In this document: piece by piece, positions 9,577-49,254 of the stretch | How the letters are laid out: every line of letters begins with the position of its first letter | Position numbering within the stretch: position 1 is the first letter of the stretch | IMG/VR virus record: IMGVR_UViG_3300022305_000326 | Coordinates: 36,741 to 100,740 of that record | Strand: one strand, 5' to 3' | From: a virus | Lineage: Duplodnaviria > Caudoviricetes | DNA: 64,000 nucleotides | Program-made: the position numbers and the translations under genes | Notes under the pieces: model-generated | The model's database searches: none | What the model was told of the DNA's origin: nothing | What the model saw: only the letters and a program-made list of their open reading frames with translations

Positions 9577-9842
9577 TGTCATTTACAAATAATAATTTTG
9601 ATATGCGTGACCCGTTAGTTAAACTGGTCATGTCATTCTTGTCTGAACAGAGTGGTATCCCTGACGACAGCGATATGGAGACTGGTGAGGTAGAACAGCA
9701 GCCGACAGCAGCAGAGTTCAAGAAAGGTACTCAGCCCGAAAATGAACTCACTGACACCATTCAAATAAATCCTGATATGTCATCAACTACACAGTCTCCA
9801 GATAGTCAAGACAACTCATATACCTACAACGCCCAACAGTAA
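9576..9842 (+). CDS. Hypothetical protein
   Basis: Translationally coupled ORF (TAATG overlap). Confidence 0.5.
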   Translation: MSFTNNNFDMRDPLVKLVMSFLSEQSGIPDDSDMETGEVEQQPTAAEFKKGTQPENELTDTIQINPDMSSTTQSPDSQDNSYTYNAQQ

Positions 9843-9844
9843 TT

Positions 9845-10800: not shown

Positions 10801-10801
10801 C

Positions 10802-11197: not shown

Positions 11198-11483
11198 ATT
11201 ATTATGTGGTCTATTGCTAGTTTTTATGGTCGGATGTAATCCTCAAACTACGACTAGACCTGATGCCAATTCAATAGTGAAACTGAAGTTACAACCGTTA
11301 CCACCGTTAGATTTAAAACCTTATTATTTTGAACTGAAATATCTCAACCAAGATAACGTGTGTATGTCTATGGATGGTGTCAGAAGAATCAGTGAATTGA
11401 ATACTATCCTCAGAAACCGAATAGAACTACAGAACAAGTATATACAAAGCTATCAGAAATACTACGAATCTGATAGCAAATAA
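11181..11483 (+). CDS. Outer-membrane lipoprotein spanin (Rz1-like)
   Basis: Signal peptide with lipobox MVGC, Pro-rich segment, additional Cys. Confidence 0.7.
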   Translation: MTPVNKLLCGLLLVFMVGCNPQTTTRPDANSIVKLKLQPLPPLDLKPYYFELKYLNQDNVCMSMDGVRRISELNTILRNRIELQNKYIQSYQKYYESDSK

Positions 11484-11526
11484 CTATAAGTCATGACATA
11501 ATAAGTCACGACCCGAAGACATTATT

Positions 11527-12600
11527 ATGATAGACGCGAATACCCAAAAATATTACATCAATAGAATGGCACAGTCCTTGACTCATTTTAAATGGGTTGG
11601 TGAGACTGGAACTTTTAGGTGCCCGTTATGTGGCGATTCTAAGAAGAATAAATTCAAGACCAGAGGGACATTTTACAGAAAGTCTACGCAGTCTGGTAAG
11701 ATGGTTTATGCTTTTAAATGTTTTAATTGCAATGAACCCAAGTCTTTCACCAATTTCATGAAAGAACAGTTCCCGGAATTGTATAAAGAATACCTATCGT
11801 TAAGATTTAAAAAAAATATTTCTGTTCAAGATGCCGGTATTCCTTCGTCGTTTGGAAGAAAATCTAAACTAAAACAACTGAGTACGACGATAAAGCCGAT
11901 TCTATCGAAGCCTATTGCCGATCTTGATACGGAACATGTAGCGTATAAATATTTTTCCAAAAGAATGTTTCCGGAAAAATACAAAACCATATTACACTAC
12001 ACCGATAACTTCTCGAAATACATCATGGAAGATTATTTTCATGGGAATGACGAAGCCATCGATAGATACAAAAATATGCATTTACCGAAAGACCCTAGAA
12101 TCATTATTCATTTCAATGATAGGGACGGAAATTCACGACTGGTACAGGGAAGATCACTTGATCCAAACTGTGAATTGCGATATATTACCGTTAGATTTGA
12201 CGAAACTTTCCCGAAAGTCTACGGATTAGATCGACATGATAAGGACAAATTGACACTGATCGTAGAAGGACCGTTTGATTCCATGATGTTACCCAACTGC
12301 CTAGCTATAGGTGGAGTAGGATTATCAGACGATCTATTACAATTTACAGGAATAGACAAAACGAAGTGTATCATGGTATATGACAATCAGCCAAGAAATG
12401 CGGATGTTGTCAACCAGATAAAGCGAGCGATAGAATTGGGTGTCAGGGTTGTGATCTGGAATGATCCTATCAGTGTAGAGAAAGATATCAATGCAATGTT
12501 AATGTCTGGAATTGACCGTAAGGCTCTAGTCAAATACTTAGCAACGCATAATTATAGTGGGTTAATGGCACGATTGCAGTTATCAAAATGGGCGAAATAA
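11527..12600 (+). CDS. 61: DNA primase (T4 gp61-like)
   Basis: FRCPLCGDS...CFNC zinc finger, VEGPFDS, YDN, KDIN TOPRIM motifs. Confidence 0.95.
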   Translation: MIDANTQKYYINRMAQSLTHFKWVGETGTFRCPLCGDSKKNKFKTRGTFYRKSTQSGKMVYAFKCFNCNEPKSFTNFMKEQFPELYKEYLSLRFKKNISVQDAGIPSSFGRKSKLKQLSTTIKPILSKPIADLDTEHVAYKYFSKRMFPEKYKTILHYTDNFSKYIMEDYFHGNDEAIDRYKNMHLPKDPRIIIHFNDRDGNSRLVQGRSLDPNCELRYITVRFDETFPKVYGLDRHDKDKLTLIVEGPFDSMMLPNCLAIGGVGLSDDLLQFTGIDKTKCIMVYDNQPRNADVVNQIKRAIELGVRVVIWNDPISVEKDINAMLMSGIDRKALVKYLATHNYSGLMARLQLSKWAK

Positions 12601-12611
12601 TAAGGAGAAAT

Positions 12612-13589
12612 ATGGAAACGCCGAATATTTTAAAGAAACAGGATGTCTATATTATAGAATATCCAGAAGCAGTAAAATTTGCAGATACACAGAACTCCGT
12701 ATTCTGGACCGCAGATGAAATTGACGTATCAAAAGATGTACAAGACATTATGACAGGTATGACGGAATCAGAACGTTATGCCACAATTGAAGTGTTAAAG
12801 TTATTCACGCAATATGAATTAGCTATCGGTAATGAATATTGGGGCGAACGTGTTAAGAGGGATTTCCAAAGACCTGATATCCAGAGAATGGCAAACTCGT
12901 TCTCATATTTTGAAATCAATGTACATGCACCGTTCTATAATAAGTTAAACGAAGCACTACATCTTAATACCAAAGAATTCTTGAGTGAATATAAGCAAGA
13001 CCCTGTTCTGTCAAGTCGTATGGCATTCATTGATGAACAGTTGAATAGTCCCGACACATTACATTCCCTTGGTGTTTTCTCGATGGTAGAGGGCGCAATC
13101 CTTTATAGTAATTTTGCATTTTTGAAGCATTTCCAGTCACAAGGAAAGAACAAGATGTTAAACGTTGTTCGTGGAATTAACTTCTCTGTTCGTGACGAAA
13201 ATCTTCATAACGAAGGTGGTGCATGGTTGTTCAGAACACTACTGAAGGAATCAAACATTTCGGACGAAAAGACGGATGAATTGTTTAAGGGTATCATTGA
13301 TGCAGCCCATCATATTAGAGAACATGAACATAGAATCATCGCTAAGATGTTCTTGAAGGGACCAATTGAAGGTGTCACCCAAATTCAAATGAATAATTTC
13401 ATTGATTCCCGCATTAATCTGTGCCTCAGTAAAATCGGCATCCGTAAGATTTTCGATGTGACGTATAATCCTATTGCAGACTGGTTTTATAAAGGTATTA
13501 ATTCTTACACCTTCCATGACTTTTTCACTGGAACAGGTAATCAATACAATCGTAAATGGGATGAATCAAAGTTAGGATGGGCGAATTAA
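12612..13589 (+). CDS. nrdB: Ribonucleotide reductase class I beta subunit
   Basis: FW..E, EINVH...Y, VEG...YSNF, RDENLH diiron motifs. Confidence 0.93.
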   Translation: METPNILKKQDVYIIEYPEAVKFADTQNSVFWTADEIDVSKDVQDIMTGMTESERYATIEVLKLFTQYELAIGNEYWGERVKRDFQRPDIQRMANSFSYFEINVHAPFYNKLNEALHLNTKEFLSEYKQDPVLSSRMAFIDEQLNSPDTLHSLGVFSMVEGAILYSNFAFLKHFQSQGKNKMLNVVRGINFSVRDENLHNEGGAWLFRTLLKESNISDEKTDELFKGIIDAAHHIREHEHRIIAKMFLKGPIEGVTQIQMNNFIDSRINLCLSKIGIRKIFDVTYNPIADWFYKGINSYTFHDFFTGTGNQYNRKWDESKLGWAN

Positions 13590-13590
13590 A

Positions 13591-15294
13591 ATGAAAGATA
13601 AAAATATCTACGAAAAACTCTCAGAAGAACGCAAGAAGCTTCAAGAGGAAGGTAAACTACCAGAATGGTTCACAACGGCAGGTTGGCAGTTGTTCAAGAG
13701 TAAGTATCTTTATGGTACAGATGACGGTTTCCGTGGTCAGGCTCGTCGCATTGCAAAAACTGCTGCTCAATGGGCACCAAAGACTGGTGAATATGGTTGG
13801 GAAGAAGCTTTCTATGACATTATTTGGAACGGGTATCTGTCATGCTCGACACCAGTTCTAGCCAATACAGGAACAGATAAGGGAATGCCAGTAAGCTGTT
13901 CTGGTCAATATATCGGTGATTCTATCAGTGCATTCTACGGTAACCGTGCAGAAACCGCCATCTTGACAAAGGAAGGTTTCGGTACAAGTGGTTATTTTGG
14001 TCATATCAGACCTCGTGGAGAAACGTTTAAGGGTGGTGGTGTCGCTGCTGGTGCTGTTCCAGTTATCGATTCATTTAGACAGGATATGAGATACGTCGCG
14101 CAGGGCACACAACGCCGTGGAGCATTCGCCGCATATCTTGACATCGATCATGGTGACTTTGATGAATTGGCCGATCTTCTTAAGAATGATCCAGACGATT
14201 TGAATATTGGTTGGAATATTTCATCAGCATTTATCGAGCGATTAAAGAATGGTGATGTAGAAGCCGATAGACGTTACAAGAAAGCTCTATTCATTAAATT
14301 GATTACTGGTAAAGGATACTTCTTCTTCACCGATAAAGTTAATGGGAAGCGTCCTAAAGGATATGTCGACAATGAATTATTTGTTCATGCTTCGAACTTA
14401 TGCACAGAAATCACATTAACAGCCGATCTTGAACACACTTTTACGTGTGTACTTTCGAGTGTTAATGCTGTTCACTTTGATATCATTAAGACTAAGAATG
14501 TGGTCTATATTGCAACAGTATTCTTGGATTGTATCGCTCAAGAATTCATTGAACGAGCAAGACATATTCCGGAATTAGAGAAGGCGGTAAGATTTACCGA
14601 GAAAGGTCGCGCATTAGGATTGGGTGTATGTGGATATCACACGTATCTACAGTTGAACAATATTCCATTTGAATCGTTCGAAGCTCATATGAAGAATAGT
14701 GAAATCTTCAAGCACATTCATGATGAGTCCCTAAGAGCCTCTAAAATGCTCGCAGATCACTTTGGTGAACCAGAATGGTGTAAGGGTACAGGTCTACGTA
14801 ATACGCACCGTATAGCCATTGCTCCTACGATGTCAACGGCTCAGATCATGGGTGGAGTGTCACAAGGAATCGAACCTTTCTTGGGTAACGCATTTAATCA
14901 GGCTGGTGCTGCTGGTGAAATTGAACGAGTTAACCCTGTACTGATCCCAATAATGAAAGATCGTGGAGTCTTCACCAAGAAAATTATTGACGATATTGCA
15001 GAGAAAATTGGTTCAGTGCAGCATGTTACATGGCTTAATGATCATGAAAAATTAGTATTCAAGACAGCATTTGAAATCGACCAGAGAACTATTCTAAGAA
15101 AGGCGTCAACCAGAGCCAAGTATATCTGTCAATGGCAGTCTTTGAACCTATTCTTCTCCGCAGATGAATCCGAAGATTACATTTCAGAAATTCATAAAGA
15201 AGCGTTCCTTGACCCAAACATCTTGGCATTGTACTATATGAGAACACAGGCTGGAGTTTTGGCCTCTAAAGACGAATGTATTGCCTGCCAGTGA
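13591..15294 (+). CDS. nrdA: Ribonucleotide reductase class I alpha subunit (compact, no ATP cone)
   Basis: STP, PVSC, QGTQRRGA, SNLCTE, IAPTMST, LYY, C-terminal CIAC. Confidence 0.95.
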   Translation: MKDKNIYEKLSEERKKLQEEGKLPEWFTTAGWQLFKSKYLYGTDDGFRGQARRIAKTAAQWAPKTGEYGWEEAFYDIIWNGYLSCSTPVLANTGTDKGMPVSCSGQYIGDSISAFYGNRAETAILTKEGFGTSGYFGHIRPRGETFKGGGVAAGAVPVIDSFRQDMRYVAQGTQRRGAFAAYLDIDHGDFDELADLLKNDPDDLNIGWNISSAFIERLKNGDVEADRRYKKALFIKLITGKGYFFFTDKVNGKRPKGYVDNELFVHASNLCTEITLTADLEHTFTCVLSSVNAVHFDIIKTKNVVYIATVFLDCIAQEFIERARHIPELEKAVRFTEKGRALGLGVCGYHTYLQLNNIPFESFEAHMKNSEIFKHIHDESLRASKMLADHFGEPEWCKGTGLRNTHRIAIAPTMSTAQIMGGVSQGIEPFLGNAFNQAGAAGEIERVNPVLIPIMKDRGVFTKKIIDDIAEKIGSVQHVTWLNDHEKLVFKTAFEIDQRTILRKASTRAKYICQWQSLNLFFSADESEDYISEIHKEAFLDPNILALYYMRTQAGVLASKDECIACQ

Positions 15295-20381: not shown

Positions 20382-20681
20382 ATGGCAGACTATAACATCG
20401 ATTTAATTATGCATCACAAAGCACAGGCTGAAAAGCACGGTGCTGCTGGAAACAAATCCTCATATCATGAACACATGTATGGGGTACATAATGAATCATC
20501 AAAGTATCACCAGTTGATGGCAAACAAAGCAACCGATAGAAAAGAAAAAGAAAACCACACAAACCTAGTTGGACAACATAAGACGAAGGCAGCAGAACAT
20601 TTTGGGTATTACATGAACGCAGATAGAAAGATCAATGAATCAATCATTGGTTACAAAGCGTTTATTAGCCGAAAAGTTTAA
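20382..20681 (+). CDS. His-rich hypothetical protein, possible internal protein
   Basis: AAGGA RBS; repeated HxxxA/HxxH pattern; ends before a terminator. Confidence 0.55.
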   Translation: MADYNIDLIMHHKAQAEKHGAAGNKSSYHEHMYGVHNESSKYHQLMANKATDRKEKENHTNLVGQHKTKAAEHFGYYMNADRKINESIIGYKAFISRKV

Positions 20682-28519: not shown

Positions 28520-28852
28520 ATGTCATATAAAATTTTCACACAGGCTGCTCATGGCGACAGTTCAAAGATTTACGATGGCGCACAGCTAGTTCGTAATGCC
28601 TTGACCGTCAAGGGTGCAGCTTTAATCCGCAATATTCAGGCACAGATGTATGGTGGATCGATCAATGAGTCCATGAAATTGATCAAGACTCATACTAATG
28701 GAAATAAAACGGCAAAGGTCTACAAGGATAATGAATGGGGTGAATACCGCGTCAAGCATTATACCGATGGAAAACACCACTCAGAAGCAGACTATCATGC
28801 TGGTGATGCTGACGATGCCCACAACACAGCACAGTCTTGGTTGAAAGGATAA
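28520..28852 (+). CDS. Putative prohead core/internal protein
   Basis: Directly upstream of gp21; internal SINE site. Confidence 0.45.
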   Translation: MSYKIFTQAAHGDSSKIYDGAQLVRNALTVKGAALIRNIQAQMYGGSINESMKLIKTHTNGNKTAKVYKDNEWGEYRVKHYTDGKHHSEADYHAGDADDAHNTAQSWLKG

Positions 28853-29514
28853 TGAATAAGTCTCTAATGTTAGTCGAATCAAATTTCGACACTCAGACAT
28901 TATGTGAAGAAAAGAATGGTGTAAAGAACTGGTACATCAATGGTGTCTTCATGCAAGAAGATGTCAACAACAGAAACCGTAGACTTTACCCTAAGAATGT
29001 CATGGAATCTACAGTCAACCAATACGTGAACGAATATGTCAAAACTAATCGTGCCGTTGGTGAACTGTCTCATCCAGATACCCCAGCAATTAATCTTGAG
29101 CGTGTATCACACATCATCGAAAGTATCTCACACGAAGGTAAGAACTATATTGGTAAAGCCAAGGTTCTAAAAACTCCAATGGGTTCTATTGCAATTGGTC
29201 TACTTGAAGGTGGTGTAAAACTTGGCGTTTCTTCTAGAGGGACAGGAAGCTTGGTTGAAAATGGATCAGGTATCAATGTCGTTCAGCCTGACTATAAACT
29301 ATCAACTATTGATATTGTTTACAACCCAAGTGCCCCAGACGCTTTTGTTCAAGGTTTGATGGAAGGTCACTCTTTCGTATGGAATACCTTAGAAGAAGAT
29401 GTTGAATTCGTAGAAGCTCTTAAGAGTGGAATCAAGAAAACTCCTTCAAGACAATTACAAGAACAAAAAATACAAGCCTTCGAAAAATTCATGAATAAGG
29501 TAAAGGGACTATGA
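28852..29514 (+). CDS. 21: Prohead protease (gp21)
   Basis: NRNRRLYP, GELSHP, GVSSRGTGS, D.V.NPSAPDA. Confidence 0.95.
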   Translation: MNKSLMLVESNFDTQTLCEEKNGVKNWYINGVFMQEDVNNRNRRLYPKNVMESTVNQYVNEYVKTNRAVGELSHPDTPAINLERVSHIIESISHEGKNYIGKAKVLKTPMGSIAIGLLEGGVKLGVSSRGTGSLVENGSGINVVQPDYKLSTIDIVYNPSAPDAFVQGLMEGHSFVWNTLEEDVEFVEALKSGIKKTPSRQLQEQKIQAFEKFMNKVKGL

Positions 29515-29921
29515 AATCATTCAAACAATATATCGCTGAGTCAAATTTACCAGTTGATGATATCAAAGATTTACATCAGCAATCAGCCCAGCATCTACAG
29601 ATAGCAAAGCATCACCATGACGAGATGATGAAAGCTCGTAGCGAAAGAGATTTCAATAAGTTTGGCGAACACGAACTATTACACCATGATGCAATGCATA
29701 AATATCATTCAGCACAGTACGATTTAGCCCTTGGTCGCGCACCACAAGACGCAAGATCACAGAACCATGAAATGACCTATGGTAACGCAGGATATCATGG
29801 TGTTAGATCAAATTATCATATTGACAATCGTGACGAAAAGCATTTTGATTATTCAAAGAGTGACGCACGCGATTCTCAGTTCAGAAATGCTCTCAGAGCC
29901 AAAAAGGACTTCATGAAATGA
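29511..29921 (+). CDS. His-rich putative internal head protein with a capsid-targeting sequence
   Basis: N-terminus MKSFKQYIAE resembles the T4 internal-protein CTS (MKTYQEFIAE). Confidence 0.65.
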   Translation: MKSFKQYIAESNLPVDDIKDLHQQSAQHLQIAKHHHDEMMKARSERDFNKFGEHELLHHDAMHKYHSAQYDLALGRAPQDARSQNHEMTYGNAGYHGVRSNYHIDNRDEKHFDYSKSDARDSQFRNALRAKKDFMK

Positions 29922-30538
29922 AATCATTTAAATCAATTATGTCAGAAGGCTATACCATAAGTAAGGGTACAGCAGCGAAGCCAGAAGAAAGTTCTGTCGC
30001 TGAAATTGGATACAAGCCTAATGATTACTCTAAAAAGACACATGCACAACTTCATTATATTATGAAGGATGCTAGTGAAGCTGCCAAGAATATGAAAGGT
30101 ATGGATTCTAAGGCAGAAGCGAAGTATCTCGACCAAGTTAACGATGCTTCAACCGAACTATATAAAAGAAAGAAAGCTGGTATTAATGTCAATGAATCCA
30201 TGTCAGACGATGATCAGGATGAACATGATTGGCATTCTTATAAAGCAGGTCATCATGAAAATGAAATGCAGGGCCATGCAAGAGAATTGATGAATGGTCC
30301 GTCTGGCGCAAATGGTGGTGTATATTCTGCAATCAATCATTTGAGTGGTAACGATGATCACGAAGGTATTACACCTGATAAGTATCAAGCGATGGCACCT
30401 CACATGGCCGCTCTTGAAGATGCTATGAGAAAAGCGCATGAAGCATATCACGGTCAAATGGTTGCGCATCACAAAGAAAAGCACGATGAACATTTGGGTC
30501 ATATTGCTGGAATTGTTGCAAAATACGCTAAAGTTTAA
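29918..30538 (+). CDS. His-rich putative internal head protein
   Basis: N-terminus MKSFKSIMSE; internal NVNE site. Confidence 0.6.
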   Translation: MKSFKSIMSEGYTISKGTAAKPEESSVAEIGYKPNDYSKKTHAQLHYIMKDASEAAKNMKGMDSKAEAKYLDQVNDASTELYKRKKAGINVNESMSDDDQDEHDWHSYKAGHHENEMQGHARELMNGPSGANGGVYSAINHLSGNDDHEGITPDKYQAMAPHMAALEDAMRKAHEAYHGQMVAHHKEKHDEHLGHIAGIVAKYAKV

Positions 30539-30583: not shown

Positions 30584-31693
30584 ATGAAGAAGAGTATTGC
30601 AGAAGTTCTAGCAGAAATGGAATCTGCACACGCTAACCGTCCAGCAGATAATACCTCTGCCGGTGAACCTGCCTCTGCTGTTGCTGCTGATCCTGCAACT
30701 ACTTTGGGTGGTGGTGATGCACACGCTAACCGTCCAGCAGACCAGTCAGGTAATGGCGAAGTTTCTGACCGTCCACAGGGTTCATCTGTTCCACCATCAG
30801 GAACAGCTACACCAATGGACCCTAACGGAATTCCAGCACCAACAGGTCCAGTGGATGTTAATCAGAAATGGGACGAGTTGATGTCACTTATGATGTCATT
30901 CAAGCCTATGAATGAATCAGAATATTCAATCAAGTTTAACAAGAATGATTTCGGTTCACTATTTGAATCAGAAGGCATTTCATCAGAATTCGGTGATAAG
31001 GCATTGACCATTTTCGAATCTGCTGTTAATAGCAGAATCAAGTCTGAAATCGTCCGTATTAACGAAACCGCAAATTCATATTTCACCGAACAGGCTAAAG
31101 AACTTGAAGCCCGTATCGTTTCAGAAAATGACGAACGTATTGACGCATATTTGAACTATGTTGTCGAACAGTGGGTTAAGGATAACCAGATTGCCATCGA
31201 ATCAGGATTCAAGGTTTCTATTGCCGAAAACGTCCTAACCGGAATCAAGGCATTGTTCACCGAAAACTTTGTTGAAATTCCTGAAACAAAGGCAGACCTA
31301 GTTGAAGAATTAGTTGGCAAGGTTACTTCATACGAAGCCGCACTTGCAGAAGCAATTAAAACCAACAATGATCTAAAGAAGAACTTGGCTGAATCAACTA
31401 AGGCAAATGTTATCTCTGGATTTGTTCAGGGTATGACTGCTGTTAAGGCTGACAAGATCAAGAGCCTTGCAGAAAGCGTCGAATTCACCAATAGCTCAGA
31501 ATTCATCACCAAGTTGAAGACCCTATCTGAAAATTACTCAGATAAGAAGTCAACCAAGTCAGGTGATTCCGGTTTAATCGTTGAAGATAATGGTAAGGTC
31601 GTTGTCGAAAACGCACCGGCATTCACGAACTCAGAAATTCCAGAAATGGCAAGATTTGTTCAGGCAACACAGATGTACTCGCCGAAAAAATAA
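30584..31693 (+). CDS. 22: Prohead core scaffold (gp22)
   Basis: IFESAV, YLNYVVEQW..DN..AIE, LF.ENFVEIP; position before gp23. Confidence 0.92.
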   Translation: MKKSIAEVLAEMESAHANRPADNTSAGEPASAVAADPATTLGGGDAHANRPADQSGNGEVSDRPQGSSVPPSGTATPMDPNGIPAPTGPVDVNQKWDELMSLMMSFKPMNESEYSIKFNKNDFGSLFESEGISSEFGDKALTIFESAVNSRIKSEIVRINETANSYFTEQAKELEARIVSENDERIDAYLNYVVEQWVKDNQIAIESGFKVSIAENVLTGIKALFTENFVEIPETKADLVEELVGKVTSYEAALAEAIKTNNDLKKNLAESTKANVISGFVQGMTAVKADKIKSLAESVEFTNSSEFITKLKTLSENYSDKKSTKSGDSGLIVEDNGKVVVENAPAFTNSEIPEMARFVQATQMYSPKK

Positions 31694-31754: not shown

Positions 31755-33161
31755 ATGTCAGGTTCTAAATTTGAAGCCCTAAAGAAGAAGTGGGGCGCTA
31801 TCCTAGAAGCCGAAGGAATGCCAACGATCCGCGAAAGCTATCGTAAGAGCGTTACCGCACAGCTTTTGGAAAATCAGTACGATGCTATGCGTCAGCAGAA
31901 TGCTGCTGAATCTGGCGGAAATCTTTTCGAATCAACCCAGCCAGTTAACACTTCAGCCGATTTCGGTGGAATTGCTGGTGCAGGTTCATCAAACATCAAG
32001 GCATACGACCCAATTTTGATTTCATTGGTCCGTCGTACAATGCCAAACATGATTGCATACGACGTTTGCGGCGTTCAGCCAATGACAGGCCCAACAGGCT
32101 TGATCTTTGCAATGCGTCCGAAGTATGTCAATCGTGATGCAATGACTGGCGCAAAGACAATGGGTAACGAATCATTCTATAATGAAGTCGATACCGATTT
32201 CTCTGGCGATCAGCTAGACGGTAACACCCAGTCTGGCACAAATCCGAAGGTCTTAAACGACGCAACTCCGGGTCCATATACAACTGGCCGTCCAATGTCA
32301 ACCCTAGCTGGTGAAACTCTCGGTGCTGATGAAGCCCTTGCAACAAATCCTTTCAAGGAAATGGGATTCACCATCGAAAAGGTTCCAGTTACAGCTAAGA
32401 CTCGTGCCCTTAAAGCCGAATACTCAGTTGAACTTGCACAGGACTTAAAGCAGCTTCATGGTCTTGATGCAGAAACCGAATTGGCAAATATTCTTTCATC
32501 AGAAATTCTTGCCGAAATCAATCGTGAAATCATCCGCACGATTTACATCATCGCTAAGAAGGGCGCAACCAACACAACAACTCCGGGCGTATTCGACCTA
32601 ACAAACGACTCAAATGGTCGTTGGGCTGTTGAAAAGTTTAAGGGTTTGATGTATCAGATCGAACGTGACGCTAACGCAATCGCTCGTGAAACTCGTCGTG
32701 GTAAGGGTAACGTCATCATCTGTTCTGCTGACGTAGCATCTGCTCTTGCAATGGCTGGTATCTTGGATTCAACCCCAGCACTTCAGGCTAACCGTCTTGA
32801 AGTTGACGATACTGGTAACACCTTCGTCGGTGTTCTAAATGGTCGCTATAAGGTCTTCATCGATCCATATGCAACCAGCACCACAAACGATGATAACTTC
32901 TTCGTTGTTGGTTACAAGGGTCAAGCTTCAGCATTTGATGCAGGATTGTTCTACTGCCCATATGTTCCGCTTCAGATGTATCGCGCTGTTGGTGAAAACA
33001 ACTTCCAGCCTAAGATTGCGTTCAAGACTCGTTATGGTCTTGTTGCAAATCCATTCGCTGAAGGTCTAAACGCTGGTCTTGGTGTTCTTACACCAAACGC
33101 TAACGTGTTCTACCGTCGCGTTAATGTCTCTGGTTTGTCAGGTGTTGCTGCTGGCTACTAA
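31755..33161 (+). CDS. 23: Major capsid protein (gp23)
   Basis: DVCGVQPMTGPTGLIFAMR, RALKAEYSVELAQDLK, FYCPYVPL, FKTRYG. Confidence 0.98.
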   Translation: MSGSKFEALKKKWGAILEAEGMPTIRESYRKSVTAQLLENQYDAMRQQNAAESGGNLFESTQPVNTSADFGGIAGAGSSNIKAYDPILISLVRRTMPNMIAYDVCGVQPMTGPTGLIFAMRPKYVNRDAMTGAKTMGNESFYNEVDTDFSGDQLDGNTQSGTNPKVLNDATPGPYTTGRPMSTLAGETLGADEALATNPFKEMGFTIEKVPVTAKTRALKAEYSVELAQDLKQLHGLDAETELANILSSEILAEINREIIRTIYIIAKKGATNTTTPGVFDLTNDSNGRWAVEKFKGLMYQIERDANAIARETRRGKGNVIICSADVASALAMAGILDSTPALQANRLEVDDTGNTFVGVLNGRYKVFIDPYATSTTNDDNFFVVGYKGQASAFDAGLFYCPYVPLQMYRAVGENNFQPKIAFKTRYGLVANPFAEGLNAGLGVLTPNANVFYRRVNVSGLSGVAAGY

Positions 33162-33180
33162 GACGTAAAGCCGTCAAACA

Positions 33181-33207
33181 AAAAGGGAGCTTCGGCTCCC
33201 TTTTTTT
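33181..33207 (+). terminator. Intrinsic terminator after gp23
   Basis: GGGAGC-TTCG-GCTCCC with flanking A and T runs. Confidence 0.9.
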
Positions 33208-33247
33208 ATGTTCGCTAAATAAATAAAATATTATAACTGGCAGACGT

Positions 33248-33934
33248 ATGAAAACATTATCACAATTTCTGGCTGAAAAAGAGGTAATTCGTTCATCTGA
33301 TAAAGGTCAATTCGACTATCAGCATGGAATCGTTCATGCAGAAAAACCCGGATATTCTAAACTAGGGTCAGGCGCATTTGGTTCAGCACTAAAAAAGAAT
33401 AGTGATGATTCCGTCTATAAAGTATATCGTTCAGATAGTCATGATGTTGCGGCTGAATTTCATAGACATGCAATGAAAGAAACAAATCCACATTTACCTA
33501 AAATTAGTAAAATGGTAACTGTTAAACATCCTCAAGGCGTACATACTGTTATATCAAAAATGGAAAGATTGTATCCATTACATAATCTCTCCCATGACGA
33601 ATTGAAAAGTTCTTGGGAACATGCCTTCGGTAAATCTGCACCAAAGGACATAACACCTTCGCATATTTCTGATCATATTGAAAGACATATCAAGGCCCAT
33701 AGCGGAATGGGTAAAATTCCCGGCAAGGCAACGTCACATTTCACGAATGCTGCGAGTGATATTGCAGCAATTGCATCTAATGGTAACGGTAAAATAGATA
33801 TAAAACCAGAAAATATAATGGTAAGAAAGAATAAAACTGGTCCACATCATTTGGTAATAAACGATCCTGTGTGGGGTGGTGAAGCTGAATCACACAATAA
33901 TCACGAATATAGTTCAGGAGAAAGTTGGTCATGA
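33248..33934 (+). CDS. Ser/Thr protein kinase 1 (T7 gp0.7-like) with a CTS-like N-terminus
   Basis: MKTLSQFLAE; LGSGAFG, VYK, DIKPENIM, INDP. Confidence 0.85.
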   Translation: MKTLSQFLAEKEVIRSSDKGQFDYQHGIVHAEKPGYSKLGSGAFGSALKKNSDDSVYKVYRSDSHDVAAEFHRHAMKETNPHLPKISKMVTVKHPQGVHTVISKMERLYPLHNLSHDELKSSWEHAFGKSAPKDITPSHISDHIERHIKAHSGMGKIPGKATSHFTNAASDIAAIASNGNGKIDIKPENIMVRKNKTGPHHLVINDPVWGGEAESHNNHEYSSGESWS

Positions 33935-34752
33935 AATCCTTCACAGAATTTTTAATGGAAGCATTGGTCATTAAAAAATCACCAATTCACTCTAAAGAAC
34001 TTTTCCATAAGATAAGCGATGCATCACGTACAGGTTATCAGCGTTTGGGTGGTGGGGTATTCGGTGTGGCTGTCCGCAAGAAAAATCCAGAATCTTCATC
34101 TGCTGATCATGTCTTTAAAATTGCACAGACCGACTTAGAAAATCCTCATGAAGACCCGTACATGAGACACGCCGTACATTCAATGAATAATCACACAACA
34201 AATGATCATTTACCGAAAATAGAAAAGATACATTCCATTAAGACTCCTACTGGTGCTGTCCATGTCGTCAAAATGGAAAAATTGCATTCAATGTCATATG
34301 CAGACGAAAATGAATTGAAATCAATGCATCATCACGCATTCGGATCACATTTCAACGATAATCCGGTGAATGCTTATAGCAGAATTAATTCAAATGTATT
34401 CACCAACAAAATAAACAAACATGTTTCTGCTCATCAATCTGCGACTTTATCGGGTAAAACTTATAATGATCCTGAATTTTTAAAGTTCCCGAATCATATG
34501 AAAAAGACAATCGCTCATTTGGCAAGAACGCCACTGAAGATGAACGACAAGCATTCTGGTAACGAAGTAGGTCCAGACTTACATACTGGCAACATAATGA
34601 TGAGAAGCCACCCTGACGGAACGCATCACCTTGTAGTCACTGATCCTTTTGTTAGCTATAAAGATTTGGGAAGCGTGAATCGTGGTGGTCATGGTATCCA
34701 TTATAAGAAAGAATATAGATCATACAAGAAAACCGGGATGAAAGACGAATGA
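33931..34752 (+). CDS. Ser/Thr protein kinase 2 with a CTS-like N-terminus
   Basis: MKSFTEFLME; LGGGVFG, VFK, DLHTGNIM, VTDP. Confidence 0.85.
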   Translation: MKSFTEFLMEALVIKKSPIHSKELFHKISDASRTGYQRLGGGVFGVAVRKKNPESSSADHVFKIAQTDLENPHEDPYMRHAVHSMNNHTTNDHLPKIEKIHSIKTPTGAVHVVKMEKLHSMSYADENELKSMHHHAFGSHFNDNPVNAYSRINSNVFTNKINKHVSAHQSATLSGKTYNDPEFLKFPNHMKKTIAHLARTPLKMNDKHSGNEVGPDLHTGNIMMRSHPDGTHHLVVTDPFVSYKDLGSVNRGGHGIHYKKEYRSYKKTGMKDE

Positions 34753-35612
34753 AAACATTTATCGATTTTTTAAATGAGGCTTATACTGTAACTAAGACCG
34801 ACCATCCATCGTCAAAGAATCTTTTCAATACAATGAAAAGTTCCATGACAAAGAATAAGGAATATAAAACGCTCGGAAAGGGTGCTTTTGGTATGGCTGT
34901 TCAGAAATTGGACAAGGTGAAGGAAGGTAGAAAAACTCAACGTGTCGAACAAGAACCAAACACCGTATATAAGGTTGCTAGAACTACGTTGGAGAATCCA
35001 TCGGATGATCCTTATATTCAGCACGCAAAGCATTCAATGGACAACCACGAGACTAATCCACACTTACCGAAAATAGAAAAGATACATTCTATTAAAACGC
35101 AGACTGGTGCCGTTCATGTTGTGAAAATGGAAAAATTACACCCAATAAATTCACTATCCCATGAAGAACGTCATGCAATGTGGAAACATGCTTTCGGTAA
35201 ACCTTTGAACACGGACGTTGGCTCTCCGATGGCTCACAATATGGCATCCAATCTGCGTCTGCATATCAATGATTATGTCACGGATAAAAAGAGAGGCATA
35301 AATTATAATGAATCGGAGTCATGGGGAGCTAGAAGACACCGACTATTACCTACTCATATGAGAAAGGCAGTTGAACATGTTGGTAACAGTATCATAAAGG
35401 CTAATAAGGTGTCTCCTCATACTGAGACATATCTCGATTTGCACGCTGGAAATATCATGGCGAGACAGCATCCATCCGGTGAAACTCATCTTGTTATAAC
35501 TGATCCTACAGCATCAAGAAAAGATATAAAGGGTTTGAAAAAACCAGAAAATAGAATCAAATATGCTGCAAAAACTCGTCAAATCAAGAAGGAAAAATCA
35601 GATGAAACTTAA
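34749..35612 (+). CDS. Ser/Thr protein kinase 3 with a CTS-like N-terminus
   Basis: MKTFIDFLNE; LGKGAFG, VYK, DLHAGNIM, ITDP. Confidence 0.85.
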   Translation: MKTFIDFLNEAYTVTKTDHPSSKNLFNTMKSSMTKNKEYKTLGKGAFGMAVQKLDKVKEGRKTQRVEQEPNTVYKVARTTLENPSDDPYIQHAKHSMDNHETNPHLPKIEKIHSIKTQTGAVHVVKMEKLHPINSLSHEERHAMWKHAFGKPLNTDVGSPMAHNMASNLRLHINDYVTDKKRGINYNESESWGARRHRLLPTHMRKAVEHVGNSIIKANKVSPHTETYLDLHAGNIMARQHPSGETHLVITDPTASRKDIKGLKKPENRIKYAAKTRQIKKEKSDET

Positions 35613-36303
35613 TCAGTTTTTAACAGAAGCCGATAAGATGGGTGACCACTATAATGAATATTCGTCTAAGGTCAAGTCAAAATCAGGATATGACACTTTG
35701 GGTAGTGGTACTTTTGCGACCGTCATAAAGAAGAAAGGTGACGACAATCATGTCTATAAGATATCTAAAACGTACCAAAAGAATCCTGACCATGATCCCT
35801 CCTATGCTTACCTGAAATCTAGCATGAAGAATCATGAATCAAATTCGCTGTTTCCAAAGGTCCATGCCTTACATGTCATTCCACATAAAGACGGTAATAT
35901 CCACGTATCCAAAATGGAAAAACTACATTCTGTCGATGATCTACACCCGTCAGAAAGATTGAAAATTTTTCACCATACATTCGGACATGAAGTGAAAGGG
36001 GCAAATGATATCAGTGGTGATGCCATCGCATTACATCTGAGAAAGCATAGACTAAATCATGAAGAGAATAAGACTCACGATCCTAAATTACCACAACACA
36101 CTCGTAATCACATAGAGCATATCAATTCATTACTGAGTGGTATCGAGAAGAGTAGTAAATCTGATCCTAGAGCAGACATGCATGGTGGTAATATCATGGC
36201 AAGAAAGACCCCGGAAGGACACCAACTTGTACTGAATGATCCGGTCGTTTCAAGTAATGATGTGTTTAGACATAACAAAGAAATACATAATTTTAAATTT
36301 TAA
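35602..36303 (+). CDS. Ser/Thr protein kinase 4 with a CTS-like N-terminus
   Basis: MKLNQFLTE; LGSGTFA, VYK, DMHGGNIM, LNDP. Confidence 0.85.
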   Translation: MKLNQFLTEADKMGDHYNEYSSKVKSKSGYDTLGSGTFATVIKKKGDDNHVYKISKTYQKNPDHDPSYAYLKSSMKNHESNSLFPKVHALHVIPHKDGNIHVSKMEKLHSVDDLHPSERLKIFHHTFGHEVKGANDISGDAIALHLRKHRLNHEENKTHDPKLPQHTRNHIEHINSLLSGIEKSSKSDPRADMHGGNIMARKTPEGHQLVLNDPVVSSNDVFRHNKEIHNFKF

Positions 36304-36317
36304 TAGAGAACAATATA

Positions 36318-36812
36318 ATGGCTGAGATTTGCGAAAATCCAAACACTGACCTAAATTTTGCCTTAAATAATAAGGCATCATTGGTCATTCCAAATCTTGA
36401 TGGGTTTGTTCTAGAGGTATTTGCATTTAATATACCGAATATGACATTACCAGCAGCAAGTCATTCAATGCCATTCACTAATGATAAGCTACCGGGTGAT
36501 AAACTTCAGTATGGTTCATTCTCGGTTAGCTTCCATGTATTGGAAAACTATAAGAACTACAAGCAGATTTTCAATTGGATGTCGGATATAGGTCGTCAGA
36601 AAAATCTGAAGCAGTATGCCGACAAGAAAAATTTCAGGGAAGACGCATACGTCCTTGCAAAGAATGCAAACTATGGTACTACCATGAGAATCAACTATAT
36701 TCAGGTGTGGCCGACAAAATTATCGAGCGTTGAATTCGCCTATAATGTGACCACCCCTGAACCTATCTCATGCACCGTTGAATTCGCATACCATTATTTC
36801 GACCTAGCGTAA
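36318..36812 (+). CDS. 3: Tail tube terminator/completion protein (gp3-like)
   Basis: Tube-fold pattern PGDKLQY, NY..IFNWM, WPT.LS; position next to uvsW/uvsY. Confidence 0.75.
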   Translation: MAEICENPNTDLNFALNNKASLVIPNLDGFVLEVFAFNIPNMTLPAASHSMPFTNDKLPGDKLQYGSFSVSFHVLENYKNYKQIFNWMSDIGRQKNLKQYADKKNFREDAYVLAKNANYGTTMRINYIQVWPTKLSSVEFAYNVTTPEPISCTVEFAYHYFDLA

Positions 36813-39822: not shown

Positions 39823-40257
39823 ATGACAACTGTAGCCTTCGACGGTAAAACTTTTGTGAGTGATACGCGAATGGTTGCAGAGTATTATACTGACGGTAAT
39901 TGTAGAAAAATATTCGAAATTGGTAATTTTATAGTAGGCATTGCTGGTGAATATGCCCAATGCCTACTTTTCATTGAAGAATTCAAGAATTGTGGTACGG
40001 ATTTGAGTAAATCATTTCCAATGGATCATATTTCTGGAATGACGAGTATGATTTACAATAAATCCAATAAGAAATTATATCGTTACGAAGGTTCTGGTTT
40101 GCCTATGTTGATCAAACCACCTTATGCAATAGGATCAGGATCATCATTTGCCATGGGGGCCATGAAATATGGTGCTTCAGCGGAAGAAGCAGTTAAGATT
40201 GCGATAAAATTGGACATTAGTAGTGGTCTTCCACTCAATAAAATCGAGGTAAAATAA
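39823..40257 (+). CDS. Ntn-hydrolase (HslV/proteasome-beta-like) protein
   Basis: N-terminal MTT nucleophile, SD.R, KI, AIGSGS, A.EAV..A..LD..S. Confidence 0.75.
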   Translation: MTTVAFDGKTFVSDTRMVAEYYTDGNCRKIFEIGNFIVGIAGEYAQCLLFIEEFKNCGTDLSKSFPMDHISGMTSMIYNKSNKKLYRYEGSGLPMLIKPPYAIGSGSSFAMGAMKYGASAEEAVKIAIKLDISSGLPLNKIEVK

Positions 40258-41247: not shown

Positions 41248-42486
41248 ATGAGTAACATTGAATTTTTTGAAACGAACGGGAAGCCAATCAAGGCTTGGAC
41301 TAATGGTGTTCCTGTTGAAGAAGATGCTAAGAAACAGCTAAAACTGATTTCTGGCCTACCTTTTATTTTTAAGCATATTGCGGTTATGCCAGACGTTCAT
41401 CTTGGAAAGGGTGCAACTGTTGGGTCTGTTATTGCAACCAAGGGGGCCATCATTCCCGCTGCTGTGGGGGTTGACATCGGATGCGGAATGATGGCCGTCA
41501 AACTGAACATAAAGGCGAATGATCTACCGGATAATCTGGCTAATCTTCGCGGAATGATCGAAGCCAAGATTCCTCATGGTCGTACTAACAATGGCGGTGA
41601 AGGTGATAAGGGTGCAAGAAACGCATCAACCTTAGAAGGCACACGTAAGGTTGATGTTATGAATCTTAATCTTAAACTGCAAGATTTTATTAATAAGAAT
41701 GATCACCGTCATCTTATTAAACCTGCATCTAGACTGGTCAATCATATTGGTACTCTCGGTACTGGTAATCATTTCATTGAAGTCTGCCTTGATACGGAAT
41801 CAAATGTTTGGATCATGGTCCATTCTGGTTCGCGTGGTATTGGTAATGCAATTGGTACTTATTTTATCGACAAGGCTAAGGAAGAAATGGCTCGGTATTT
41901 CATTAATGTTCCAGAACAGGATTTGTCATATCTTGTACAAGGAACCAAGATTTATGATGACTATATTGAAGCAGTGAGTTGGGCACAGGATTATGCAAGA
42001 CTCAACCGTGAAATCATGATGAATGATGCAATTGAATGTATGAAGAAATTCGTGCCACATATTGCTGTAGATATCGTAGAAAGTGCAGTCAATTGTCATC
42101 ATAATTATGTTTCGATTGAAAATCATTACAATGAAAATGTTATTGTGACTCGTAAGGGTGCGGTATCGGCACAGAAGGATCAGTTGGGGATTATTCCGGG
42201 TTCTATGGGAGCAAAATCTTTCATTGTTCGTGGTAAGGGTAACAAAGAATCGTTCTGCTCATGTTCTCATGGTGCTGGCCGTAAAATGTCCAGAACTGCG
42301 GCTAAGAAAATGTTCACGATTGATGATCACATTAAGGCTACTGAAGGTGTTGAATGCCGCAAGGATGCTGATGTTATTGATGAAACCCCACAATCGTATA
42401 AGGATATTGATGCAGTTATGGCGGCACAGTCAGACCTTGTTGAAATTGTCGCAACGCTGAAGCAAATTTTGTGCATCAAAGGCTAA
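41248..42486 (+). CDS. rtcB: RNA ligase RtcB
   Basis: MPDVHLG.GATVGSV, GVDIGCG, GTLGTGNHFIE, HSGSRG, HHNY, PGSMG, SHGAGR. Confidence 0.97.
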   Translation: MSNIEFFETNGKPIKAWTNGVPVEEDAKKQLKLISGLPFIFKHIAVMPDVHLGKGATVGSVIATKGAIIPAAVGVDIGCGMMAVKLNIKANDLPDNLANLRGMIEAKIPHGRTNNGGEGDKGARNASTLEGTRKVDVMNLNLKLQDFINKNDHRHLIKPASRLVNHIGTLGTGNHFIEVCLDTESNVWIMVHSGSRGIGNAIGTYFIDKAKEEMARYFINVPEQDLSYLVQGTKIYDDYIEAVSWAQDYARLNREIMMNDAIECMKKFVPHIAVDIVESAVNCHHNYVSIENHYNENVIVTRKGAVSAQKDQLGIIPGSMGAKSFIVRGKGNKESFCSCSHGAGRKMSRTAAKKMFTIDDHIKATEGVECRKDADVIDETPQSYKDIDAVMAAQSDLVEIVATLKQILCIKG

Positions 42487-45850: not shown

Positions 45851-45865
45851 GGGATAGACTCTATG
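45816..45865 (+). promoter_or_regulatory. Tandem GATAGAC-loop hairpin leader (copy 1)
   Basis: CTGGACG-GATAGAC-TGTCCAG, then a second GATAGAC ending 3 nt before the ATG. Confidence 0.65.
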
Positions 45866-46951
45866 AAGAAGTACAATACTGCGGTTGTCATTGGTCGTTT
45901 TTCTGGCGTGGTCCATAAGGGTCACTCTGAACTTTTCAAGGCTGCGGCTAAGCTGGCAGATAATGTTGTCATTATCGTTGGATCGTCGTTCAAGGCTCGG
46001 GATTTCAAGAATCCGATGAGCTTCGATGAACGTAAGGCTATGATTGGAATTCAGCTTGATTCGATGGAGATTGATAATCATTCCATCTATGGCGTTCCAG
46101 ACTATCTCTATGATGATGATGCATGGGTGTCGGAAGTGACCTCTGTCATCGAAAACGACAAATGTATTGATTCTTCATATAGTCGCAAGATTGCAGAGTC
46201 TAATATTATGGTGCGCGATACCGTTCTCGTTGGTTGCCATAAGGACAATTCGTCGTGGTATCTTGATCGTTTCCCTCAGTATGACTATGTTGAAATTCCA
46301 GTTTCCAACGGTAATGGAAAGGAACTCAACGCCACTGATATTCGCCATATGATCTACACCCAGCCCAATATCTATGACGCCAAGGATTTTGTGTCGTCTG
46401 AAGTGATGAATTATGTTCACCACTGGATGAATTCGACCGCGTGTTCCGATATGACCAAGAGCTATCTTATGAACCTTGACTATGCCAAGCCATATGTCAA
46501 TCTTCCATATAAACCGACATTTGTTACTACTGACGCCGTGGTTTTCTGCAAGAGTCATGTCCTCGTAGTGGTACGAAAGGCGCATCCGGGTAAGGGTCTG
46601 TTTGCACTACCGGGTGGATTCCTTAATACTAATGAACGTATCCGTGATAGTGTTATTCGTGAACTTATTGAGGAAACGCGAATTAAAGTCCCACATACCG
46701 ATCTCGTTATCAGTAAAATGAAGGAATTCGATCACCCGAATCGTTCACTTCGATATGGCCGTACAATTACTCATGCTGGTTTTATTAATCTTAAGTTTAA
46801 TGGTATTGGACTTCCGAAGGTTCGTGGTTCAGATGATGCAGAACATGCACAGTGGGTTCCGCTGACCATGCTCGACCGAATGAATGACAAGTTCTTTGAA
46901 GATCATTATTCAATCATTAAGTATTTCCAGTTTAGACAGGAGCAGGTATGA
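45863..46951 (+). CDS. nadM: Bifunctional NMN adenylyltransferase / ADP-ribose NUDIX hydrolase
   Basis: IGRF...HKGH, GS...KNP.SF.ER, KD.SS.YL..FPQ, NATDIR, Nudix box GG.....E.......RELIEET, SDDA, FEDH. Confidence 0.93.
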   Translation: MKKYNTAVVIGRFSGVVHKGHSELFKAAAKLADNVVIIVGSSFKARDFKNPMSFDERKAMIGIQLDSMEIDNHSIYGVPDYLYDDDAWVSEVTSVIENDKCIDSSYSRKIAESNIMVRDTVLVGCHKDNSSWYLDRFPQYDYVEIPVSNGNGKELNATDIRHMIYTQPNIYDAKDFVSSEVMNYVHHWMNSTACSDMTKSYLMNLDYAKPYVNLPYKPTFVTTDAVVFCKSHVLVVVRKAHPGKGLFALPGGFLNTNERIRDSVIRELIEETRIKVPHTDLVISKMKEFDHPNRSLRYGRTITHAGFINLKFNGIGLPKVRGSDDAEHAQWVPLTMLDRMNDKFFEDHYSIIKYFQFRQEQV

Positions 46952-47803: not shown

Positions 47804-47856
47804 CTAGGGTGGATAGACTGCTCTAGTTTCTAAATTTATAGGAGATAGACTCAATG
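47804..47856 (+). promoter_or_regulatory. Tandem GATAGAC-loop hairpin leader (copy 2)
   Basis: CTAGGGTG-GATAGAC-TGCTCTAG, then GGA-GATAGAC-TCA-ATG. Confidence 0.65.
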
Positions 47857-49254
47857 ATTAACGATAGCGTAACTCTTGGTGGTATCAAGCCGGTTTTTGT
47901 TGCAGATGGTTATAAGTATTCGCAGGCTTATCAGTATCCTGAAGGAACTGATCTGATTTATTCTTATGGCGAATCTCGTGGTGGACCGTTCGACCAGATG
48001 CGAGTCTTTGGTACGGAACTGTATGTCCGTCGATTCCTTATGAGTAAGATCACTCGTGCTGACGTTGATAAGGCACAGAAATATGTCGAATCTTTTGGTA
48101 TGGTCTTTAACCGTAAGCTCTGGATGAAAATTGTTAATAAGTATAAGGGTTTTATCCCTGTTACGTTCTATGCCGTCCCTGATGGTACTGTCATTCCAAT
48201 TAAGATGCCGATCTACGCTATCGAAGCTAAGGATGAATTCCATAGTATTGCATCCTTTCTTGAAAGTGGTGCACTCGGAAGTATCTGGTATCCTTCGACC
48301 GTTGCTACTATTTCATGGAGAATCCGCAACGTAATTCGTGAGTTTTATAACCTCACTGGCGGTATCGATGGAATGATCCCTTTCGCCCTGAATGATTTCG
48401 GTCTTCGCGGCGCTGGCTGTCCAGAACTCGCAACTATCGGCGGAATGGCGCATCTTCTTTCGTTTGAAGGTACCGACAATATCCCTGCCTTTATTAGCGC
48501 ATGTGAACTGTTCGATGCCAAGCTCGCACCATCAGGCGTTTGTGCAAGTGAACACTCAACCATGACTTTCCTTGGTCGTGAAGGTGAATTCGCGCAGTTC
48601 GAAATGATGATCGACAAGTTCGCACACAAGGGAATCATGGCCGTTGTTTCGGATGGTTACGACTACTATAAGGCAGTAACCGAATTCTGGTGCAGTCCCC
48701 GTATCGTTGCCAAAGTCAAAGCGTCTGGTGCCAAGGTCGTTATTCGTCCAGATAGCGGTAATCCGGTCGATATTATCATGTGGACACTTGAAAAGCTTGC
48801 CGCCGCATATGGCAGCACTGTGAACGATGCTGGTTATTGGCAGATTGACGCTAGTATCGGTCTTATCTATGGAGACGGCATCAACGAAACCACTATTCGT
48901 GAAATCCTGAATGCCATGGACAAGGATGGTTGGGCTGCATCTAATATCGTATTTGGTATGGGTGGTGCACTTCTACAGGCTGTCAATCGTGACACTATGA
49001 AGTGGGCACAAAAGACTTCGTATGGATCGATTAATGGTGTCGGATTCGGTGTGTCGAAAGACCCAATTACCGATCCGGGGAAGAAGTCCAAGACTGGTCG
49101 TGTAACCACGCTGAGACTGGCTGATGGTAGCTATGCGGTCGGCGATAAGGATAATATCCCTGAAGGTGCGGTAGATATCATGCGCCCACTTTATGCATCA
49201 GGAGCTATCATGAATTTTCAGACTTTCACTCAGATGCGGGATAACGCACCATGA
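47854..49254 (+). CDS. nadV: Nicotinamide phosphoribosyltransferase
   Basis: D.YK.SQ..QYP, ESRG, WYPSTVAT, DFG.RG, ASEHS, VSDGYD, IRPDSG, GDGI, FGMGGALLQ..NRDT, KDP.TD.GKKS. Confidence 0.95.
   Translation: MINDSVTLGGIKPVFVADGYKYSQAYQYPEGTDLIYSYGESRGGPFDQMRVFGTELYVRRFLMSKITRADVDKAQKYVESFGMVFNRKLWMKIVNKYKGFIPVTFYAVPDGTVIPIKMPIYAIEAKDEFHSIASFLESGALGSIWYPSTVATISWRIRNVIREFYNLTGGIDGMIPFALNDFGLRGAGCPELATIGGMAHLLSFEGTDNIPAFISACELFDAKLAPSGVCASEHSTMTFLGREGEFAQFEMMIDKFAHKGIMAVVSDGYDYYKAVTEFWCSPRIVAKVKASGAKVVIRPDSGNPVDIIMWTLEKLAAAYGSTVNDAGYWQIDASIGLIYGDGINETTIREILNAMDKDGWAASNIVFGMGGALLQAVNRDTMKWAQKTSYGSINGVGFGVSKDPITDPGKKSKTGRVTTLRLADGSYAVGDKDNIPEGAVDIMRPLYASGAIMNFQTFTQMRDNAP

Follow-up and report, generated by a model that had tools for sequence, protein, structure and literature searches.

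Tandem T7 gp0.7-type kinases with candidate capsid-loading tags behind the major capsid gene of a T4-like phage

The window analysed here is a stretch of 64,000 nucleotides that forms the last 64 kb of the 100,740-bp IMG/VR record IMGVR_UViG_3300022305_000326 (~55% complete) and that, judged by its sequence, comes from a T4-like phage. Behind the gene of the gp23-type major capsid protein, positions 33248-36303 are filled by four open reading frames (ORFs) on the same strand, whose products, here called K1 to K4, are almost certainly protein kinases of the T7 gp0.7 type with predicted activity. Each begins with a peptide resembling the head-targeting sequence of the T4 internal proteins (IPs), and this peptide is likely to work as a capsid-loading and cleavage tag. 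The whole chain that we propose, from late synthesis through loading, cleavage and ejection to an action on host proteins at time zero of the infection, appears fairly probable. Both halves of such a system are known, on the one hand phage kinases of the T7K type (T7K being the T7 gp0.7 kinase) and on the other the tag-mediated packaging of ejected effectors in T4. For their combination, packaged T7-type kinases that occur four or five to a set in T4-like phages, no report was found in the literature searched; within its limited coverage, this search agrees with the preliminary description of the sequence, according to which no packaged multi-kinase system had been described.

The four kinases and their relation to T7 gp0.7

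An alignment of the four proteins (A1) revealed in each of them the elements listed in the preliminary description, namely a Gly loop (GSGAFG, GGGVFG, GKGAFG and GSGTFA in K1 to K4, respectively), a lysine motif (VYK or VFK), a catalytic loop and a metal-binding DP motif, the last two as given in Table 1. The invariant columns of the alignment in this part of the proteins are G40, G42, K58, D184, N189, D206 and P207. The Gly loop, the Lys, the catalytic Asp and Asn and the Asp of the DP motif are intact in all four kinases, and the loop of K1, D-I-K-P-E-N, has the classic form of Ser/Thr kinases. From the intact catalytic motifs, together with the family to which the proteins belong, we infer that K1 to K4 have phosphotransfer activity.

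All four proteins matched phrog_15752, which is annotated as T7 gp0.7-type kinase, with E values from 4.6e-6 to 2.5e-10. Compared directly with T7 gp0.7 by hhalign, the four paralogs alone gave a probability of 72.9% (E 3.1e-5), and a profile made from a 114-member alignment of the kinase family (A2) gave 98.0% (E 1.6e-13) over 155 columns covering residues 65-220. In these profile alignments the LGNGHF, VIKV, DMHSGNIM and TDPV segments of T7 gp0.7 stand in register with the motifs of the window kinases. The profile comparison and structure search against T7 gp0.7 that the preliminary description had suggested thus came out in favour of homology, T7-like phage kinases being among the structural matches described below. 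A sequence search of the PDB returned marginal N-lobe matches to SYK only (E 0.17), and for more distant members of the family the matches to PF27024 (Phage_T7_kinase) were only 'weak' or 'faint'.

A study of 2026 describes T7K as hyperpromiscuous; its very broad phosphorylation disarms a number of bacterial defences, Retron-Eco9 and DarTG1 among them, and in the kinase DPV replaces DFG and holds the active conformation (PMC13645617). The window kinases share with it the G-x-G-x-F loop, the V-x-K lysine, the D-x-H-x-G-N-I-M loop and DP(V) in place of DFG, with DPV itself in K1 and K4. Neither has a regulatory activation segment, and the family is found almost only in phages. The differences concern architecture, setting and number. 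K1 to K4 end 20-45 residues past the DP motif, whereas T7 gp0.7, to which the alignment stops at residue 220, continues to residue 359; its C-terminal host shut-off/DNA-binding domain is absent from K1 to K4 in this alignment, as it is from the jumbophage and prophage homologues of T7K (PMC13645617). T7K is the product of a single early gene at the genome end, whereas the window kinases lie inside a late head/tail module, with four to five paralogs per set. T7K also lacks the T4-type tag, ~64 other residues preceding its Gly loop, and it belongs to PHROG 2828 instead of 15752. The published survey places T7K homologues in Autographiviridae, in two jumbophage groups and in a few prophages, and mentions neither T4-like phages nor packaging (PMC13645617).

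The AlphaFold2 model of K4 (predicted local distance difference test, pLDDT, 94; predicted template-modelling score, pTM, 0.89) has a protein-kinase fold in a minimal form, which has a much reduced C-lobe, lacks the activation segment and ends soon after the DP motif. Kinases of T7-like phages and uncharacterised proteins from uncultured phages made up most of its best matches in BFVD, with E values down to 8e-11, and the Foldseek matches in the PDB were kinase-like throughout. The top rows of the latter were APH(2'') aminoglycoside phosphotransferases (E ~1e-4) which, in combination with the reduced C-lobe, would suit kinases that act on small molecules, of the aminoglycoside/choline-kinase type, or else kinase-fold proteins that are catalytically dead and serve as structural head contents. 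Distance-based re-ranking by VIA re-alignment instead placed protein kinases first (Mps1, PKR, IRE1 and PINK1, with moderate Z of 7.7-8.3; the alignment of K4 to Mps1 reached Z 8.3 at a root-mean-square deviation of 3.7 Å over 145 residues). Taking into consideration the profile homology to T7K, the loop of K1 and the catalytic residues, by which none of the four looks dead, we regard both of these identities as very improbable and retain that of protein kinases. Residues 1-10 of the K4 model, which comprise the N-terminal peptide, have a pLDDT of only ~60 and lie outside the core.

The N-terminal peptide and histidine content

The reference sequences of T4 ipII and ipIII both begin with MKTYQEFIAE, in line with the targeting sequence quoted in the preliminary description. 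In T4 the first ten residues of IPIII are sufficient for loading; targeting is mainly governed by residues 4 and 7 and processing by residues 8 and 10. The tag takes foreign proteins into the T4 head and onward into the host, and it was suggested as a general means for T4-like phages to load varied proteins (PMC9026906). All four kinase N-termini that the preliminary description had likened to this sequence, of the form MK...F-L-x-E, were found (Table 1). K1, K2 and K3 match the T4 rules position by position, and K4 does so with a deletion of one residue. Among the paralogs M1, K2, F7, L8 and E10 are invariant. When the orthologs treated below are included, F7, L8 and E10 remain fixed and position 4 is L or F, whereas positions 3, 5, 6 and 9 and the next ~25 residues vary. 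It is this conservation at exactly the targeting (4, 7) and processing (8, 10) positions of T4 that makes the peptide tag-like.

Compared to T4 IPI, IPII and IPIII, the window kinases have in common M1, K2, T or S at position 3, a hydrophobic residue 4, F7, an aliphatic residue 8 and E10. Both occur with a T4-like head module that has gp21 and gp22 homologues, both are basic when mature, and in both cases the content varies among related phages. They differ in that the IPs are small and non-enzymatic, whereas the window proteins are full enzymes of a kinase family, and no homology extends beyond the tag.

The pattern MK-x(3-5)-[FYILMV]-[LIMVA]-x-E was searched in all 754 ATG-initiated ORFs that encode 60 aa or more, taken from both strands of the 100,740-bp contig. 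Seven ORFs matched and nothing else did, namely K1 to K4, the gp22-type scaffold and two internal-protein-like genes, here called IPa and IPb. The latter two sit between the prohead protease and the scaffold, which is the classical spot for core and internal proteins, and Pfam and PHROG scans gave no family match for either. Mainly because of this restriction to seven ORFs, the peptide is read as the phage's own prohead address and not as a part of the kinase.

In the wider family the N-terminus takes a related form. A search of 1.84 billion proteins with the four-kinase profile returned 1,833 representatives at E<=0.001, 293 of them at E<=1e-10, many of which come from fragments of very large genomes. 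The usual start of these other members is M-K-[LI]-x-E-[LI], and [LIVMF]xE occurs within the first 12 residues in 115 of 132 single-domain representatives (87%), phages of other kinds included, as compared to 22% of background ORFs. This frequency, together with the single clade that the tagged kinases form, would also be expected for T7K-type kinases that are made late or always and whose action, without packaging, is confined to the cytoplasm of the cell that makes them, the N-terminus being a family trait or having a role in folding, regulation or the start of translation. The presence of the same peptide on IPa, IPb and the scaffold, and on no further ORF besides the kinases, speaks against such a role, and so does the behaviour of the N-terminus in other genomes. 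In a complete IMG/VR record of 372,016 bp (G006; L138-L156), 17 of 431 genes begin with M[KR][LIV]x[ED][LIVFM], typically as MKIxELLxE, where a rough estimate from residue frequencies gives ~1 gene by chance. Two of these genes encode kinases of the family and 15 are non-kinase genes, ten of which were scanned against PHROG and gave no functions; an S77 protease is present in the record. Since the kinases of G006 share the distinct N-terminus of their own genome, the peptide follows the phage and not the kinase, which argues for a loading signal, on a small sample. Furthermore, an S77 protease is present in every complete or large record that encodes such kinases, and the ~40-kb records of T7-like podophages, which are without prohead protease, are also without the motif. 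We therefore consider a purely cytoplasmic role rather unlikely and continue to read the peptide as a loading tag.

Several further observations were made in this survey. Family kinases often stand as tandem pairs or groups in fragments of large phages (IMG/VR L014, L019, L034, L042, L047, L057, L063 and L080, the last with four). On a 165-kb phage contig (L011), positions 8101-14032 hold one ORF of 636 aa and another of 1,343 aa, the latter matching the kinase profile in seven separate stretches; these ORFs may be fused kinase-domain arrays or a polyprotein. The jumbo phages CBB and RaK2, which have published virion proteomes and appeared among the structural matches, were discarded as evidence because they are too distant, a search of both genomes with the family profile being negative.

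A second property shared by the tagged proteins is their histidine content. His accounts for 7.0-10.3% of IPa, IPb and K1 to K4, as compared to a median of 1.5% in the contig proteome, and the six proteins are among the top eight of 118 genes in this respect (Mann-Whitney p 5e-5). Within the kinase family the mean is 7.2% for members with a T4-type tag and 3.5% for the others, and the His richness of tagged proteins recurs in two other phages. The kinases are paralogs, which reduces the truly independent observations to only about three. His richness, being independent of the tag, is a further link between the kinases and the internal-protein-like genes; an action confined to the cytoplasm leaves it unexplained, and it provides a separate, testable clue to packaging fitness. 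The top eight also contain an ADP-ribosyltransferase of 326 aa with 10.4% His at 8596-9576 (+), which has an above-cut-off match to PF03496 (E 1.2e-9, 38 bits) and a weak Alt-like PHROG match. It was considered as tagged cargo and rejected, its N-terminus being without a clear [LI]xE tag. Finally, a 99-aa ORF 3' of the tail tube gene (20382-20681) contains 10.1% His.

Late signals, related loci and the proposed route

On the + strand of the window, sheath, tail tube and portal genes are followed by those of the gp21-type protease, the gp22-type scaffold and the gp23-type capsid protein. TAAATA is found in the window in 27 copies on the + strand and 6 on the - strand, and 12 of the 27 fall into the intergenic 7% of the window (odds ratio 10.7, p 9e-8), with intergenic copies 28-55 nt before the sheath, portal, fibre, scaffold and capsid genes and K1. 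This distribution is as expected of a late promoter element of the T4 type. The CTAAATA late-type motif that had been reported before the kinases is indeed present, with TAAATA enriched ahead of late genes, and the position in the late module in combination with this motif suggests that the kinases may be transcribed late.

Among 50,697 phage records, no match was found to the locus by megablast or to K3 by tblastn, and tblastn with two other family members against the same records found only two Stenotrophomonas jumbo phages. Related loci were located by a degenerate DNA pattern for D-x-H-x-G-N-I-M-x-R. A 155.6-kb ENA contig (L005) has the same head module, in which five tagged kinases are located after gp23 and before the tail-tube-fold gene. 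One-to-one orthologs are identical to K1 at 66%, to K2 at 79%, to K3 at 83% and to K4 at 86% of residues, whereas the paralogs of the window are mutually identical at 30-42%; the kinase set is therefore old. The fifth kinase of L005 (7814-8506) has no counterpart in the window. An ORF of 484 aa (L005 6333-7787) that lies between gp23 and the kinases in L005 and L007 is likewise absent from the window; in L005 it has no tag and no Pfam match.

A second T4-like phage, represented by a 112-kb Logan contig with a gp23 of 60% identity, encodes five tagged, His-rich kinases (L158 6124-10068, L008 10001-10804), which are scattered over sites beside gp2, ahead of a gp3-like gene and between gp14 and gp15. 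A Phage_TTP_2 gene is located 3' of a kinase in this phage as well. An ORF for a TnsA-like endonuclease stands between two of its kinases. In the tree its five kinases group with the metagenomic representative P0051, apart from the window lineage, which points to separate expansions of the kinase sets in the two lineages. With five kinases in L005 and five in the second lineage, the copy number varies among relatives in the way that the preliminary description had predicted.

The near-identical DNA of K2 and K3, from which a recent duplication had been deduced at that stage, was recovered in the form of a 26-nt string present in exactly two copies (34210 and 35064), where chance alone would give 0. 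The duplication itself did not stand, as a recent origin of K2 and K3 is contradicted by the age of the paralogs, each with its own ortholog in L005. Identity by codon windows is 80-84% in the tract shared by the two genes and ~45% elsewhere; in the L005 pair it is 58-73%. The stretch has the look of local gene conversion in the window lineage, or else of a segment under strong constraint.

We propose the following route for the kinases. Small, basic, constitutively built and of Ser/Thr type (24-31 kDa with an isoelectric point of 8.9-9.8 when mature), they would be transcribed late together with the head genes. By way of the N-terminal 9-10 residues they would dock onto the scaffold core that gp22 forms in the prohead, and the gp21-type protease would cleave behind the Glu that stands at position 9 or 10. 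Once mature, the kinases would remain in the DNA-filled head and be ejected with the DNA, and their kinase activity would be directed at host proteins, probably defence proteins too, before any phage gene is expressed. The paralogs, which differ mainly in the inter-lobe insert and the C-terminal tail, would probably also differ in their targets. Packaging, cleavage, ejection and targets are in this scheme predicted for K1 to K4 by analogy. The functional analogue is T4 Alt, which is packaged and ejected and which loses six residues at ITE-6 (PMC5694885). As proposed for the kinases, Alt is a host-modifying enzyme that is made late, is loaded into the prohead through a short propeptide at its N-terminus, which gp21 cuts after a Glu, and is delivered at time zero. 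It differs from them in its reaction, ADP-ribosylation instead of phosphorylation, in its unrelated fold and in its propeptide of 6 residues as compared to the 10-residue IP-type tag; its packaging is shown, whereas that of the kinases is a prediction.

Kinases loaded into the head could instead act in the prohead itself, on the scaffold, the internal proteins or the portal, or serve as DNA-associated internal proteins, in both cases without a role in the next host. The evidence for the tag applies equally to this reading, the isoelectric point of the mature proteins is as expected for DNA-associated head contents, and poxvirus virion kinases act in morphogenesis. However, T4 proteins whose mature part stays behind in the head, which are the IPs, Alt and tagged foreign proteins, go into the host (PMC9026906), and lineage-specific expansion to four or five diverged copies fits an arms race with the host better than a fixed role in assembly. 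We judge an action limited to the head to be decidedly unlikely and prefer delivery into the next host.

Several points weigh against such delivery. No virion proteome, transcriptome or cultured host was found for the phage or its relatives. The motif before K1 reads CTAAATAAATA, unlike the T4 TATAAATA, and late synthesis of a promiscuous kinase might disturb the cell that produces it. Scans of Pfam (E up to 1) and NCBIfam gave no kinase family for K1 to K4, the Pfam copy possibly being without PF27024, and family membership consequently rests on PHROG, profile-profile and structural comparisons. An N-terminal helix ending in Glu could be a trait of the family and not a loading tag. Finally, because the tagged kinases form one clade in the tree, the tag and the His richness that they share are in part inherited and not independent.

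In a wider sense, T4-like and related large phages may inject capsid-loaded, diversified sets of T7K-type kinases. These would broadly phosphorylate host defence and nucleic-acid-binding proteins at time zero, ahead of transcription, and expand in an arms race over targets; His richness would reflect a requirement of head storage or exit, and M-K-[LI]-x-E-[LI] would represent the tags of jumbo phages. We hold this extension tentatively, the balance tipping slightly towards doubt. If kinase injection is true, a ready-made enzyme would close the time gap that arises as T7 must express T7K first, in the way that T4 does with Alt and with IPI, which blocks a restriction enzyme. Phosphorylation would join the short list of activities injected by phages, and the T7K family would be placed in T4-like phages, where the published survey does not report it. 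The divergence of the kinase sets would be explained as well, and the kinases, being small and constitutive and having a natural tag for capsid delivery, would be usable as tools.

Layout of the head module and neighbouring genes

The features of the locus are collected in Table 1. The ORF coordinates bear out the four overlapping, coupled paralogs behind gp23 of the preliminary description, with overlaps of 4 nt (ATGA) for both K1/K2 and K2/K3 and of 11 nt for K3/K4. The length of K2 is counted from an ATG, where the ORF listing begins the frame at a TTG at 33925, and that of K4 from the ATG that yields the tag-like N-terminus, a further in-frame ATG being located upstream at 35563. AGGAG precedes the start from which the MK... 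N-terminus of K2 is read, and AAGGA that of K4, and the gene caller picked the equivalent starts for both in L005. In the same contig the ortholog of the prohead protease is assigned to PF03420 (Peptidase_S77) and that of the scaffold to PF25623 (T4_CASP). The gp23 of the window is ~60% identical to capsid proteins of T4-like phages of Pseudoalteromonas, Synechococcus, Methylophilales and Sinorhizobium, from marine and soil sources.

Table 1. Features of the head module and kinase locus, in window coordinates
Feature	Position	Strand	N-terminus	Description	Match
gp21-type prohead maturation protease (S77)	28837..29514	+			phrog_207 head maturation protease, E 9e-72
IPa, internal-protein-like	29511..29921	+	MKSFKQYIAE	136 aa, 10.3% His	tag pattern
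IPb, internal-protein-like	29918..30538	+	MKSFKSIMSE	206 aa, 8.3% His	tag pattern
gp22-type prohead scaffold	30584..31693	+	MKKSIAEVLAE		phrog_237 head scaffolding protein, E 6.7e-62
gp23-type major capsid protein	31755..33161	+			phrog_138, E 1e-155
Intrinsic-terminator-like hairpin	33180..33205	+		3' of gp23; 11-bp stem, TTCG loop, T run	
Late-promoter-like motif	33215..33226	+		CTAAATAAATAA (CTAAATAAATA at 33215-33225), 28-32 nt 5' of K1	
K1	33248..33934	+	MKTLSQFLAE	228 aa; DIKPENIM, NDPV	phrog_15752, E 4.6e-6
K2	33931..34752	+	MKSFTEFLME	273 aa; DLHTGNIM, TDPF; Lys-rich C-tail	phrog_15752, E 1.2e-9
K2 side of the K2/K3 high-identity tract	34135..34292	+		158 nt, 74% identity; partner at 34989-35146	
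K3	34749..35612	+	MKTFIDFLNE	287 aa; DLHAGNIM, TDPT; Lys-rich C-tail	phrog_15752, E 9.6e-8
K4	35602..36303	+	MKLNQFLTE	233 aa; DMHGGNIM, NDPV	phrog_15752, E 2.5e-10
Tail-tube-fold gene (possibly gp3-like)	36318..36812	+		directly 3' of the kinases	phrog_45 tail tube, E 4.8e-22

Elsewhere on the + strand of the window, a proteasome/HslV-like subunit of 144 aa that starts with MTT (39823-40257; PF00227, E 1.5e-9) adjoins UvsY- and UvsW-type genes. An RtcB RNA ligase of 412 aa (E 4e-128) is encoded at 41248-42486 (+); its ortholog in L005 (16499-18649) has 716 aa and contains intein-splicing and HNH domains. Finally, a cytidylyltransferase-like/NUDIX fusion at 45863-46951 (+) and a nicotinamide phosphoribosyltransferase of the NAMPT type at 47854-49254 (+) together make up an NAD+ salvage pair, of a type described as phage counter-defence.

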